64,000 nt of DNA from Nitrospirota bacterium (GTDB lineage: Bacteria; Nitrospirota; UBA9217). The notes below the pieces were generated by a model. That model was not told the origin of the DNA, ran no database searches, and saw nothing but the letters and a program-made list of their open reading frames with translations. Numbering within the stretch: position 1 is the first letter of the stretch; each line of letters begins with the position of its first letter. A program made the position numbers and the translations under genes. Below, piece by piece: positions 28,324 to 34,495 of the stretch. The DNA lies in the NCBI GenBank assembly GCA_963796285.1, contig CAWCKW010000013.1:384001-448000 (forward strand). The letters are read 5' to 3'.

Positions 28324-30244
28324 TTATGATGTGGTCATTACCCCGCCGAACATTTCCACAATCTTGTTGACTAACGCAGGCAGCGACGGGTCCCGTGCCC
28401 CCATGAGAAGAACGCAATCTCCCGGTCTCACTTCGGCCTGCAGTTTGGCCAACAATTCATCGCGACCGCTGACCGCTTGCGCATTGAATGCCACGGCACC
28501 GATGCCATTGATGATGTCCTCCGAGGAAATGTCCTTTTGTGCCGTACCCCCTGCATAATAGATCGGCAGGAGATAGAGCGAGTCATTTGGCCGGAAGGCG
28601 GTCCGAAAGGTTGCGATGTATTCATCCTTTAAGAACCGTGTCGGACCGAACCCGTGCGGCTGGTAGATGGCGATAATGCGGCCGGAAATGCCCCGCGCCG
28701 CGCGGACAACAGCCGCTATCTTTGCCGGATTATGCGCAAAGTCGTCGACCACATGCACGTTCTGCGTTGTCCTGGTCACGGAAAAACGCCGGGCCACACC
28801 TTCGTAATTTTTTACCGCTTCGGCAAGCGCCGTAGGCTCGCATCCGAAATGCTCGCACACGCAAAGCGCTGCGCGCAGGTTTTCAAGATTGTGATCGCCC
28901 GGAAGCGGCAGATGATATTCCGTGTCGCTCTTAAAAAGCTTGACCGAAGTCGGTAGGAGCTCGTAATGGTCCGGCCGCCAAGAGCCGGCACCATTCCGTC
29001 CGAAGCGTACGGTAGCGGGAAGGGACGCAAGGAGCGGATCGTCGGCATTTGATGCTGTCCAGGAAGAGTTTGAAATCAGCGTTTCGAAAAGCTGCTTTAA
29101 TCTCATCGGTGCTTTTGTGGTCTTTGGAAATATTCAGGATGACCGCTGCCTCGGGACGATATTTGACAAGCGTTCCGTCGCTTTCGTCCGCCTCTACCAC
29201 CAAAAGATCCGATCCGCCATGATAGGCATTGCCGATGAGCCCCTGTTTTTCAAGCCGGCGCAAACCGGCGCCGCTGATGAGCGAGGGCGATTTCTCGCAC
29301 GCAGTCAGGAATTCGAATATCATCGCGGTCACCGTGGATTTGCCGCTCGTGCCGGCGACGGCGATGGTCTTTTTCGTCGCGATGAGCGCGCTGAGCAGAT
29401 CGGAGCGATGGACGATGGGAAGTCCGCGGCTATGAGCCGCGGCGAGGTCGGGATTTGATTCTTCTATTGCGGTCGAGACGCAGACAACATCGGTGTCCGC
29501 GCCCACGCCTGAACCGTCCTGCTGAACAATGTCACACCCGAGCCCTTCAAGCGATCGGCGGATGGAGGCGGTATCCTCGCTTGCGTGGAACCGGTCGGAA
29601 CCCGAGACCGTGATCCCCTGGAAGCGCAGGTATTGCGCGAGCGCGCTCATGCCGCTGCCGAAGATACCGGTGAAATGGACGCTGCGGCAGGATCGCTCAT
29701 TGATAACGATGGGAGAAGGTTCGATGTACACGAGCGTGCCTTCTTTTACCATATCAAAAAGGCGAATGACGTCGTGATTGCGGAGGCACACGCACCCGTG
29801 CGAAAGGGGCCTGCCGATCAGGTCCTCGCGGCCGGTGCCGTGGATATAGATGTAGCGCTCATAGGAATCCACGCCCGTGCCCTTATTGATTCCCTGCTCA
29901 AGTCCTTCTAGCCGCAGGATACGGGTCAGGATCAGGTTGTCTCCGGTCTGGCTGTGGTCCCAATCCTCGCCCGCATCCTCGCGGTCCCGGAAAATGCGGC
30001 CGGGAGGCGCACCAGCCCCGAACTTCTCCTTGATCCGATGAACACCGAGCGGCGTTTTGAGCGAGTTCTCCCGATTGCCATTGCCGAAACGGGAGGTTGA
30101 GCAGTCATATCGCTCGACAATGGTGTCATTCATGCAGACGAGAAGCGTTTGCGTCTCGATCGACACCACGATAAAAAGGTCCGCTGGATCGGCCAACAAC
30201 CGTTGCAAATTTTTGTAAATACCGGGTAATCGAGCTGTTTCCAT
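28324..30244 (-). CDS. YkuD (L,D-transpeptidase-like) domain fused to MurC/Mpl-type ligase; +1 frameshift near 29097
   Basis: IYIHGT...SHGC, then GIFGSGMSALA, AGTSGKST, EADESD, DH; C-terminal part (GDHN, DDFAHNP, YQPH) is in the 28324-29106 frame. Confidence 0.85.
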
Positions 30245-31003: not shown

Positions 31004-31498
31004 CTAGCTAGCTTGTTGGCCGCAGCACTTCTTGAATTTCCTGCTGCTGCCGCACGGGCAGGGGTCGTTGCGGCCGGTCTTGGGGGCTGCGCGGACAACC
31101 GGCTTCGGCATGGTCTTCCCCGCGGTAAAGTACCAGATGCCCTTTTCCTTCTTGAACGTGGACAGCTCGTGGTGCTCCTGTTTGTTCCCTTTCTCGATAT
31201 AGGACGCCACAAATTCGACCTGCCCCTCGCTGTCCTCCGGTCCCCCGGCAACGGTGTTCACTATTTTGATCCCCTGCCACTCCGCGCCCTCGGCCCAGGC
31301 ACGGGTGGCTTGTTCATCATAATCCGACCGGTGCTCGGGATGCAGTGAGGTGAGGATGTATTCGATCTCTTTCTTTACAAACGCGCTGTAGCGGGAACGC
31401 ATCAGCTGTTCCGCTGTCATTGCGCTTTGCTCGTTCTTTATCAGCGGCCGGCAGCATTCCGCGTATTCACTGTTTGAACCACAGGGACAGAAGTCCAT
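31004..31498 (-). CDS. ychJ: YchJ family SEC-C motif protein
   Basis: [33 protein letters not shown]. Confidence 0.92.
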
Positions 31499-31706
31499 AC
31501 ATTTCTCCTTGGATGCTCTTGCAAATGGTCTTTATCGTTCAGGGTGGATGCGTTCCAACAACCCGCCCTCCGGCGGGCGGTGAAAAATATCATACGAAAA
31601 ACAGCGATGAAGCGCAACTGGAAAAGGACGGTGACGGGAAATAAAGGACCAGCAGCGGTCAGAGGGTCCCGAATACCGTCAACGCCGCACAATTGCTAAT
31701 TTTGCA

Positions 31707-31736
31707 TTGATTATGGGCGGGTCATTGTGCTATATT
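31707..31736 (+). promoter_or_regulatory. Putative promoter of the thrC-CGS operon
   Basis: TTGATT, 18-nt spacer, extended -10 TGnTATATT. Confidence 0.55.
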
Positions 31737-31847
31737 TCCCGGTGCCTGCGAAATTGCGCCAAGAGCGCTTTTTTGCGCATCGCATCGCCTCATGGGCAGG
31801 CGTTCGAAGATTTTCGCAGTAATTCATCATACCCGAGGATAAAGCCT

Positions 31848-33194
31848 ATGTCATATCGAGCCTGGTTCCAATGCATCAACGAAAAGTGCAGCGAGCAGTA
31901 TCCGCTCAACACGGTCATCTACCGCTGCAAGGCCTGCGATTCGCTTCTGGAGGTCAGGCACGACATGCAGGCCCTTGCCCACCGCAGCGCCAAGGCGTGG
32001 ATGAAGCTCTTCGAGGACCGCTACAAGTCCACCCAGTGGCCCTATGGCTCTGGCATCTGGGGCAAGAAAGAATGGGTCCTGCCGCAGATTGCCGACGAGA
32101 ACATCGTCTCGCTCTACGAAGGAGGCTCCAACCTGTTCTGGGCAGAGCGGTTCGGCAAGATCGTCGGCGTGGACAACCTCTGGCTCAAGCTCTGCGGCAA
32201 TTCCCACAGCGGATCGTTCAAGGACCTAGGCATGACCGTGCTCGTATCTCAGGTCAAGCAGATGATCAGCGACGGCGCGCCGATCAAGGCCGTGGCCTGC
32301 GCATCGACGGGGGACACCTCGGCCGCCCTGGCAACCTATTGCGCCGCCGCGGGCATCCAGTCCATCGTGCTGTTGCCCAAGGGCAAGATCTCGATCGCCC
32401 AGCTCGTGCAGCCGATCGCCAACGGCGCGCTGGTCCTGTCGCTCGACACGGACTTCGACGGCTGCATGCAAGTGGTGCGGGAGATCACCAAGGACGAGAC
32501 CATCTACCTGGCCAATTCCATGAACTCGCTCAGGATCGAGGGGCAGAAGACCGTGGGCATCGAGATCGTCCAGCAATTCGACTGGGAGGTCCCTGACGTG
32601 ATCATCATCCCCGGCGGCAACCTGGGGAACGTCTCGGCGCTCGGCAGCGGCCTTTTGATGATGCGCGACCTCGGCCTGATCACGAAGCTGCCAAGAATAG
32701 TAGTGGCCCAGGCGGAGCGCGCCAACCCGCTTTACCGCTCGTACCTCAAAAACTTCGAGTCCTTCGAACCCATGGTGGCGCAGAAGACACTGGCCAGCGC
32801 CATCCAGATCGGCAACCCCGTCAGCATCACCAAGGCGATCCGCACGCTCAAACAGTTCGACGGCATCGTGATGGACGCCACGGAGCAAGAGCTGTCCGAC
32901 GCGGCCGCGCTGGGTGACACGACCGGCATGTTCAACTGTCCCCACACCGGCGTGGCCCTGGCGGCATTGATCAAGCTTATCAAGTCGGGCAAGATCGACA
33001 AGTCCGAGCACGTTGTGGTCATCTCCACGGCGCATGGACTCAAGTTCACTGACTTCAAGGTCAACTATCACGAGGAAAAGCTGGGGTTCCCCTGCAACTA
33101 CGCGAACAAACCGATCGAGCTGCCGGCCCGCATCGACGCGGTCAAGGATGCCCTGGAGAAGGCTTTACAGAAGAGGAGAACAATAAATGGCTAA
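31848..33194 (+). CDS. thrC: Threonine synthase, plant-like type
   Basis: [18 protein letters not shown]-Lys motif, [37 protein letters not shown]. Confidence 0.93.
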
Positions 33195-34395
33195 GAAACC
33201 GACCAATCCCAAGAACTGGAACCCGGCCACACTCGGCATCCACGGCCTGGACCGCGTGCACCATGCCCACTATGCGGTCTCCACGCCGATCGTGCATACC
33301 TCCAACTACTACTTCGAGAACACGCAGGAAGTGTACGATTTCATGAAGGGCAAGAGCGAAGGCAAGCTGCTGCGCGAACACGAATACGGCCGCTACGGCA
33401 ATCCGACCCAGACCGAGTGCGAACGCAAGCTTGCGGCCATCGAGGGCGCCGAGCGAGCGGTGCTGTTCTCCAGCGGAATGTCCGCCGTGATCCTGACGCT
33501 CATGACCTTCATGCGCCGCGACGGCCACATCATCTTCACGAGCGACTGCTACCGCCAGACGCGCGACTTCGCCTCGAACCTGCTGGCGGAGTTCGGCATC
33601 CAGGTCTCGCTCGTGGACCCGACGGCCGAGGCCATCGAGAAGGCCATCAAGCCCAATACGAACATCATCTTCACGGAATCGCCCACGAACCCCTATCTGC
33701 GGTGTCTGGACCTCCCGGCGGTCGTGAAGGTCGCCAAACAGCACAAGGTCCTGACCGTCATCGATGCCACGCTGGCCACGCCCTACAATATCAAACCGCT
33801 GGACGTCGGGGTCGATGTCGTCATCCACTCGTCCACCAAGTATCACGGAGGCCATAACGACCTCCTGGCCGGCGTCGCCCTCGGCTCGGACAAGCTCATG
33901 AACGACATCTACCGCATGCAGCGCATGATCGGCGCCGTACCGGGCCCGCTCACCTGCTTCCTGCTGGAGCGCGGCCTCAAGACCTTCGGCCTGCGAATGA
34001 AACACCACAACGAGGCCGGCCTGACCGTCGCGCGCATGCTCGAGGCGCACCCGAAGGTCGAGAAGGTTTGGTACCCCGGCCTGGATTCGCACCCGGACCG
34101 CGCGATCGCGAAGGCGCAGATGAAGGGCTTCGGCAGCGTGGTCACGTTCCTGCTCCGGGGCGACGACGCGAAGACCAGGAAGTTCATCGACTCGCTCGAG
34201 CTCTTTCTGATCACGCCGAGCCTTGGCGGCAGCGAAAGCCTCGTTACCCAGATGTGGATGATGTCGTTCTTCGACTACCCCGAGGAGTACCGGAAAAAGA
34301 TCGGCATGTCGGACAACCTCGTCCGCCTCGCGCTGGGCCTGGAGGACGTGGATGATCTGCTCGCGGACCTGAAGCAGGCATTTGAAAAGGTCTAA
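33187..34395 (+). CDS. metB: Cystathionine gamma-synthase, plant-like (Cys/Met PLP family)
   Basis: [47 protein letters not shown]; 8-bp overlap with thrC. Confidence 0.8.
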
Positions 34396-34462
34396 GGCCG
34401 GTTTTCCGTAAAAGCATCCTGATTGAACCATTCGAGGACAAGTTTCCGTCGAGAAGAACGAT

Positions 34463-34495
34463 AGGCCCCGCTTCACAGCGGGGCCTTCCCATTTT
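34463..34495 (+). terminator. Terminator after thrC-metB
   Basis: aggccccgct-tcac-agcggggcct hairpin followed by a pyrimidine run. Confidence 0.7.

Follow-up and report, generated by a model that had tools for sequence, protein, structure and literature searches.

A plant-type threonine synthase and a plant-like cystathionine gamma-synthase relative form a putative O-phosphohomoserine branch-point operon in a Nitrospirota bacterium

How does a bacterium in which no homoserine acyltransferase can be recognized make homocysteine for methionine? The question is raised by two overlapping genes in a 64,000-nucleotide stretch of the genome of a sediment-type Nitrospirota bacterium (contig CAWCKW010000013.1, positions 384,001 to 448,000), which we call the window. 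Textbooks and pathway tools credit bacteria with acyl-homoserine routes, a DUF39 route or, lately, MetM/MetO routes, and they treat the cystathionine gamma-synthase (CGS) that depends on O-phosphohomoserine (OPH) as a plant feature. The two genes encode a threonine synthase (TS) and a pyridoxal phosphate (PLP) enzyme, both of plant type.

31848–33194, plus strand: gene 1, plant-type threonine synthase thrC, 448 amino acids, identified by TIGR00260, the PALP domain and its match to Arabidopsis TS
33187–34395, plus strand: gene 2, plant-CGS-like PLP enzyme of Cys/Met metabolism, 402 amino acids, a PF01053 member of the plant CGS clade

The ATG of gene 2 (33187–33189) precedes the TAA of gene 1 (33192–33194), and the coordinates bear out the 8-bp overlap reported in an initial annotation made from the sequence alone. 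An OPH branch point in this bacterium is well supported by comparative genomics of gene content and linkage. We consider it moderately probable that the pair is a two-gene operon serving this branch point, with the second enzyme forming homocysteine directly from OPH.

We compared the homoserine and sulfur genes of the host genome. The initial annotation had noted that metA and metX are missing from the window; neither they nor DUF39 HcyBio has a match anywhere in the 3.58-Mb, 96%-complete genome. The third gene that it had singled out for a genome search, thrB, is represented by a match of 53 bits only (cut-off 168), so that no true thrB is present, and HomK is found instead (TIGR02535, 576 bits, cut-off 446). 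HomK forms OPH and rescues an E. coli thrB mutant, according to the portion of the GapMind 2026 preprint available to us. With metA, metX and DUF39 missing and HomK present, the gene content leaves OPH as the sole activated homoserine, and genes 1 and 2 are predicted to be its only recognizable users in the genome.

Gene 2 is the sole strong PF01053 member of the genome. A transsulfuration partner, cystathionine beta-lyase, was not found: there is no second PF01053 member, and no PatB/MalY-type C-S lyase lies above its cut-off (best 151 vs 340 bits). Direct formation of homocysteine, or a bifunctional enzyme, fits this combination better than a CGS that uses cysteine.

The plant character of gene 1 is clear from bit scores against PDB chains, on which our plant comparison of ThrC is based. 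Arabidopsis TS (1e5x) aligns with residues 15–440 of 448 at 556.8 bits, compared with 199.4 bits for the best bacterial TS structure and 62.9 bits for E. coli ThrC (1vb3), to which gene 1 is 27% identical by BLASTP. The earlier impression that the synthase stands nearer to the Arabidopsis enzyme than to E. coli ThrC was thus correct. Gene 1 exceeds the threshold of the threonine synthase model TIGR00260 (213 bits, cut-off 167.1), matches the PALP domain at 189 bits, and carries the PLP-lysine motif SFKD in alignment with Arabidopsis TS. It also has a plant-TS-like N-terminal domain, the 1e5x alignment starting at query residue 15 (chain residue 53); with bacterial TS structures the alignment does not begin before about residue 77. 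An N-terminal Cys4 motif (C9, C14, C27 and C30) is shared with a fused relative, and the aligned Arabidopsis residues are not cysteines. No other ThrC homologue occurs in the genome at E ≤ 1e-30, which implies that gene 1 is the cell's threonine synthase.

Gene 2 matches PF01053 at 425 bits. Among PDB chains, its best match is tobacco CGS (1qgn/1i41, 361.3 bits), followed by a next match of 289.7 bits and, further down, E. coli MetB (1cs1, 217.0 bits). By BLASTP it is 43% identical to flowering-plant CGS1 and 33% identical to E. coli MetB, with an overall range of 43–44% for plant CGS. These figures confirm the proposal that the partner is nearer to plant CGS than to MetB, and every motif quoted in the initial annotation is present in the translations, including MSFFD in gene 2. 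The cluster of gene 2 is isolated among 50%-identity cluster representatives; its closest full-length relatives, at 44–47% identity, include a Micromonas 'plant CGS' cluster and flowering-plant CGS1.

We placed gene 2 in a tree of 90 rows (IQ-TREE quick search, LG+G4, with E. coli MetB as outgroup). A 35-row clade with SH-aLRT support of 98 holds both the plant CGS rows and the gene 2 product. It divides into 28 bacterial rows, the window protein among them, and a 7-row group (support 100) in which three rows bear plant or green-alga CGS names. A grouping of the pair with ordinary bacterial MetB, MetZ or ThrC, which would have spoken against the initial annotation, was not observed. The active-site region of the clade carries YGRYGNPT and CYR[KRQ]TR in place of the YSRRGNPT and CYGGSY of E. 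coli MetB. Together with the comparison of gene 1, the tree supports the assignment of both proteins to the plant type on sequence grounds.

Of the 44 NCBIfam models that match gene 2, none of the 25 listed attains its cut-off. The shortfalls include 359 vs 549.7 bits for TIGR01328, 297 vs 510 for TIGR01325, 291 vs 495 for TIGR01326 and 307 vs 522 for NF006003, and gene 2 fails the cut-offs of the equivalog models for the O-acyl-homoserine sulfhydrylases MetY/MetZ and for methionine gamma-lyase (MGL). The AlphaFold model (pLDDT 85.5) has 1qgn as its top Foldseek match (TM-score 0.91). In the alignment, gene 2 starts about 13 residues before the conserved core and flowering-plant CGS1 has about 150 extra residues. 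Gene 2 thus lacks the long plant N-terminal extension, which we take to be the regulatory MTO1 region.

We next consider how consistently the two genes occur together. A scan across phyla, with one genome per species, returned 80 loci. At CGS identities of at least 66%, all 21 loci have a plant-type thrC directly upstream on the same strand; they come under the titles Nitrospirota, Thermodesulfovibrionales and Verrucomicrobiota, apart from a few bins labelled otherwise. The remaining 59 loci are more distant, at 46–52% identity. In eight of them, a thrC that is 62–68% identical lies directly upstream (Leptospirales, Methylomirabilota/Rokubacteria, Binatia and a deltaproteobacterium). Nine others, all of Anaerolineae type, have a convergent thrC (41–44% identical) just downstream, and 42 have no thrC within the flank. 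Anaerolineae-type loci also contain homoserine kinase thrB (10 loci) and aspartate kinase (9 loci). Clustering all open reading frames (ORFs) of the 80 loci yielded no third conserved gene beside the pair in the thrC-linked groups.

The linkage extends to fusion. We found 63 protein clusters of 711–857 amino acids (typically about 848) that combine PALP and PF01053 and are 72–79% identical to gene 2, and one further such cluster at 45% identity. In one fusion that was checked, residues 1–443 are a plant-type ThrC at 85% identity. A 795-residue protein, P0122, was rejected as a ThrC fusion because it resembles PF01053 in two stretches and ThrC in none. That the pair is co-inherited and often fused is as expected for enzymes that share OPH.

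Gene content in other phyla provides the strongest argument for homocysteine formation from OPH. Of 22 other-phyla genomes with the enzyme family, 14 lack a match to either MetA or MetX at E ≤ 1e-20; the rest have a strong MetX (three), a weak MetX-like protein (three) or MetA (two). Among 14 control genomes, by comparison, two match neither metA nor metX and 12 match one. The homocysteine-binding domain of MetH is present in all 22 genomes. In seven of them (four Verrucomicrobiota, a Leptospirales bin, one Methylomirabilia and one Anaerolineae) the enzyme is the only PF01053 member. These seven genomes need homocysteine, show no acyl-homoserine route and offer one candidate enzyme, with no paralogue to take the part of a beta-lyase, which points to an enzyme that would convert OPH to homocysteine either directly or bifunctionally.

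Within Nitrospirota, we examined 101 genomes, including the host (G000); the window's family is represented by the host and 15 others. Orthologues of gene 2 (at least 69% identity) occur in 14 of these 15 genomes and in three genomes of two other families. MetX was found in five of the 101 genomes and MetA in none. The lone family genome without an orthologue, G050, has MetX, a weak MetY-like PF01053 match beside metX, MetH and MetE. The plant-type ThrC is the only ThrC in the host and in 10 of the 15 other family genomes; these 11 of 16 genomes presumably rely on it for threonine.

Most genomes of other Nitrospirota families have two ThrC homologues. In the one pair examined, the standard ThrC next to HomK scores 513 bits against Aquifex TS, and the divergent paralogue upstream of ThiS scores 210 bits, a position that suggests the place where a MetM-like enzyme would be expected. 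Among family genomes with only the plant-type ThrC, the HomK region was examined in 10, including the host; the ThiS-like gene is flanked there by ThiF, not by a ThrC paralogue, and a JAB gene accompanies it in nine. The simplest reading is a module swap, in which the plant-type TS and the CGS-like enzyme replace the ThrC and MetM-like enzyme of other Nitrospirota.

Separately, 12 of the 16 loci from other Nitrospirota families (L124–L139) are ordered ThiS-like, NIL, standard ThrC, HomK. L128, the only one examined in full, has a divergent second ThrC upstream of ThiS, which suggests a MetM/MetO-type route.

The HomK region of the host offers a possible source of sulfur. On one strand of contig C12 (1,369,500–1,375,800; locus L107, 7566–13759) lie hom (homoserine dehydrogenase), TusA (a TusA-like sulfurtransferase), ThiF, JAB, ThiS-like, NIL, HomK and ask (aspartate kinase) genes. 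hom is broken up over two frames that overlap, apparently through a frameshift or a fault in the assembly, and the ThiF/MoeB-like E1 scores 284 bits. The ThiS/MoaD-like carrier ends in AIAGG plus 10 residues, and 27 of 29 extracted homologous carriers end in AIAGG plus 0–10 residues; a tail after Gly-Gly is what one would expect of a carrier that a JAB protease trims. The cluster thus combines a homoserine-activating gene with those for a GG-tailed ThiS-like carrier, its E1-like adenylyltransferase and a JAB protease, the gene set of protein-thiocarboxylate sulfur transfer. Two candidates from the region were set aside. A 397-amino-acid ORF without a Pfam match is the antisense of the ThiF and TusA genes, and the small NIL protein, present in 95 of 101 phylum genomes, is too widespread to mark the pathway.

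From gene structure, homology, clade, gene content, synteny and fusion, which are observed, we infer every substrate and the sulfur donor in the following scheme. HomK, encoded in the ask–HomK–hom cluster elsewhere in the genome, would make OPH. Gene 1, the plant-type TS and sole ThrC, would convert OPH to threonine, and gene 2 would use the same OPH for a gamma-replacement with a sulfur nucleophile, giving homocysteine, the precursor of methionine. Free cysteine, with a separate beta-lyase to follow, is probably not the nucleophile; more likely candidates are sulfide and the ThiS-like carrier in its thiocarboxylate form, the gene of which lies between hom and HomK. In the window's family, the pair would take the place of an ordinary ThrC and its MetM-like paralogue. 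The initial annotation had proposed that this bacterium makes methionine directly from OPH and co-expresses the two competing enzymes, as a prokaryotic counterpart of the plant switch. Its choice of substrate is upheld by the missing acyltransferases, the presence of HomK and the linked or fused pair, but the plant-like cystathionine step is unsupported, and a partner that acts as a cysteine-using CGS is at odds with a single PF01053 member and no beta-lyase above cut-off, a situation shared by seven of the 22 genomes from other phyla.

Several observations weigh against this scheme. The host assembly is in 13 contigs, is 96% complete and carries 5% contamination. The carrier may serve another enzyme: the ThiS-like gene adjoins NIL in all 30 loci examined, and the small NIL protein occurs in nearly all phylum genomes with or without the operon. 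Replacement of other routes is not strict, as G069 and G081 hold both the orthologue and metX, and G015, G057, G069 and G095 combine the orthologue with a second ThrC homologue that is MetM-like where examined. Within the plant CGS clade, the orthologue subclade departs from the plant motif. All 16 scored loci, of 21, have Gln (YRQTR) at the position where plants have Lys (YRKTR) and other bacterial relatives have Arg or Lys. The best NCBIfam match of gene 2 is an MGL model, albeit under its cut-off, and MGL structures give Foldseek TM-scores nearly equal to that of tobacco CGS, so that the fold search, in which tobacco CGS comes first, was undecisive as a discriminator of function. Cysteine synthase of the CysK/M type is present in the host, and no known methionine synthase was recognized there or in most of the family.

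The alternative that survives best is a faithful copy of the plant pathway, in which gene 2 makes cystathionine from OPH and cysteine, an unrecognized beta-lyase, or gene 2 itself in a bifunctional role, completes the route, and S-adenosylmethionine (SAM) activates the TS. Much of the similarity evidence agrees with it. Gene 2 lies in the plant CGS clade at 43% identity to plant CGS1, tobacco CGS ranks first by both sequence and fold, the ThrC keeps a plant-like N-terminal domain, and a CysK/M cysteine synthase is present. A single bifunctional MetB/MetC predicted in Xanthomonadales, in the part of the GapMind 2026 preprint at hand, is a proposed precedent. The missing lyase (no second PF01053 member; PatB/MalY at 151 vs 340 bits), the recurrence of a sole PF01053 member in seven of 22 other-phyla genomes and the lack of the long N-terminal extension of flowering-plant CGS speak against it, and we regard it as unlikely.

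A catabolic or salvage role is less probable still, and we consider it doubtful. Here gene 2 would be a methionine or cystathionine gamma-lyase or would use methanethiol, methionine would be taken up, and the link to thrC would not reflect a shared substrate. The MGL matches among family models and structures lend it some weight, as does the methionine synthase gap. The homocysteine domain of MetH, the MetE/Mes core and an E. coli-like MetF were not found in the host genome, and the MetH domain and MetE/Mes core were likewise not found in 12 of the 15 other family genomes, which are 94–100% complete. Several other Nitrospirota families without the operon show the same gap in MetH and MetE, however; it is thus not peculiar to genomes that carry the operon. 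Linkage to thrC, thrB and aspartate kinase across phyla and the ThrC fusion in 63 clusters also argue against catabolism, as do the 22 of 22 other-phyla genomes that have MetH, mostly without metA or metX. Finally, the Tyr-Gly-Gly of E. coli MetB and of the out-of-clade proteins P0141 and P0151 is replaced by Tyr-Arg-x-Thr-Arg.

The gap itself may have two explanations: a homocysteine methyltransferase of a novel type, or methionine obtained in another way. The latter includes possible auxotrophy, which would weigh against our scheme. A direct reaction of OPH with methanethiol is conceivable and finds no support in this analysis. We rejected an MtaA/CmuA-like methyltransferase and corrinoid cluster as the methionine synthase, as its presence, in only seven of the 15 family genomes, does not follow the pattern of the gap.

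In the host, contig C6 (about 88,000–101,000; locus L106) encodes, in two frames of 326 and 108 amino acids, a split cysteate synthase (TIGR03844, 368 bits, cut-off 325). It adjoins two methylcobamide methyltransferases of the MtaA/CmuA family, a corrinoid protein, a RACo-type reductive activator, iron-sulfur (Fe-S) proteins and a fragment of a thiamine pyrophosphate (TPP) enzyme. This cluster looks like coenzyme-M-type chemistry in a Nitrospirota bacterium.

A further idea is that the roles are swapped or shared. The plant-type ThrC would then be a MetM-like homocysteine synthase that depends on a thiocarboxylate, alone or in addition to its own reaction, and another gamma-replacement would fall to gene 2. 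This idea draws on the ThiS-like carrier system beside HomK and on the description of MetM, in the available part of the GapMind 2026 preprint, as a ThrC homologue often annotated as threonine synthase, but it is very improbable given that gene 1 presumably makes threonine in 11 of 16 family genomes, scores 557 bits against a characterized plant TS and is quite different from the divergent MetM-like paralogue examined in other Nitrospirota (210 bits to bacterial TS).

We also looked for expression signals around the gene pair. Two features flank it.

31707–31736, plus strand: promoter-like site TTGATT–18 nt–TATATT with TG before the -10 hexamer, found by a consensus scan about 110 nucleotides upstream of thrC
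34463–34486, no strand assigned: GC-rich hairpin after gene 2 with a 10-bp stem of 8 GC pairs, a possible terminator

The promoter-like site coincides with the sole conserved block among nine aligned upstream regions. Rfam gave no family at gathering score in the window and none at E ≤ 1 in 31400–31900. A riboswitch or leader RNA upstream of thrC was rejected: there is no Rfam match, and the leader outside the promoter-like block is unconserved in the nine relatives. The initial annotation had ended the pair with one terminator. The hairpin is indeed present and is followed on the plus strand by the tail TTCCCATTTT, but the consensus scan scored it on the minus strand only, and its role as the single terminator of the pair is plausible but weak.

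Base composition sets the two genes apart from their surroundings. The GC content at third codon positions (GC3) is 0.87 for thrC and 0.89 for gene 2, compared with 0.70 ± 0.10 for 219 long ORFs of the contig, which places both in the top 1–1.4%. The GC content of the window climbs to 0.61 over 32–36 kb, against 0.54–0.58 nearby. High expression or foreign origin could account for the high GC3. A minus-strand ORF of 444 amino acids (33142–34476), antisense to the entire gene 2, arises from the high GC3 on the sense strand and is not a gene.

The neighbours of the pair in the window are unrelated to methionine, with a YchJ-like protein upstream and flavin adenine dinucleotide (FAD)-binding and Fe-S proteins downstream. 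Elsewhere in the window, the minus-strand frame 28931–30244 fuses a YkuD L,D-transpeptidase domain to the N-terminal and middle domains of a Mur ligase. It overlaps by 176 bp another minus-strand frame, 28324–29106, which has a Mur-ligase C-terminal domain. The two frames (28324–30244) are probably one gene split by a frameshift or sequencing error.

Among the papers listed by a full-text search, judged by titles and the starts of abstracts and with subscription journals outside its scope, we found none on a bacterial plant-type TS/CGS pair. The portion of the GapMind 2026 preprint available to us gives MetM/MetO as the sole bacterial OPH route, and a 2026 review treats OPH as a plant substrate, discussing it only for Arabidopsis. 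The enzymes and their chemistry are familiar, but the literature searched does not describe them in this bacterial setting, as a fusion, without a beta-lyase or linked to a sulfur-carrier system.

The observations allow a broader model, which we offer tentatively. A plant-CGS-type enzyme may form homocysteine by a novel route, from OPH and sulfide or a ThiS-like thiocarboxylate, without acyl-homoserine or cystathionine. Co-translated with or fused to the competing TS, it may act as a bifunctional unit that sets the split between threonine and methionine. The pair, widespread in Nitrospirota, Verrucomicrobiota, Methylomirabilota, Leptospirales and Chloroflexota, may be the kind of module from which the plastid TS and CGS of plants were acquired together, not from the cyanobacterial ancestor. 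If the enzyme uses OPH, many uncultured lineages otherwise called auxotrophs would see a recurrent 'gap' in their methionine synthesis closed. The pair would then also provide a bacterial, often fused, model of the plant threonine/methionine switch and a concrete hypothesis as to where the two plant genes came from.

We compared the gene pair to characterized systems, of which the plant enzymes are the closest. Like SAM-activated Arabidopsis TS1 (1E5X, 2C2B and 2C2G), gene 1 has an N-terminal domain that ordinary bacterial ThrC lacks, and SFKD and a further 11-residue motif are conserved between the two. In plant TS, the SAM site is located at the dimer interface, according to the portion of the structural literature available. 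Gene 1 differs from TS1 in having no transit peptide, in its N-terminal Cys4 motif and in being encoded, in many relatives, as a fusion to the CGS-like enzyme. Gene 2 belongs to the same clade as tobacco CGS (1QGN/1I41) and flowering-plant CGS1, with 43–44% identity, shared YGRYGNPT and CYRxTR motifs and a TM-score of 0.91. It differs in lacking the long N-terminal extension and in having Gln for the plant Lys of CYRKTR. Because its genome has no beta-lyase partner, its sulfur donor and product probably differ as well. E. coli MetB and ThrC have the same folds and reaction classes as gene 2 and gene 1 and are only 33% and 27% identical to them, respectively; MetB depends on O-succinylhomoserine made by MetA and on MetC.

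Two bacterial systems resemble the proposed sulfur chemistry, as far as the available portions of the reports describe them. In the HcyS/HcyD/HcyF and MetY system of Wolinella succinogenes (Krishnamoorthy and Begley 2011), a PF01053 enzyme is combined with a carrier thiocarboxylate, and MetY takes its sulfur from that thiocarboxylate. In both, the carrier extends beyond Gly-Gly at its C-terminus and a JAB protease is encoded nearby. Wolinella MetY uses O-acetylhomoserine from MetX, whereas the host studied here has no MetX and a gene content that allows only OPH. The Streptomyces MetM/MetO system (Hasebe et al. 2024, via the GapMind 2026 preprint) turns OPH into homocysteine, and the route predicted here would likewise start from OPH, with a ThiS-like carrier, JAB and a ThiF/MoeZ E1 encoded beside HomK. 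The difference lies in the enzyme: the host genome has no MetM-like paralogue, and the PLP enzyme that is its candidate belongs to fold type I (PF01053) and is not homologous to ThrC.

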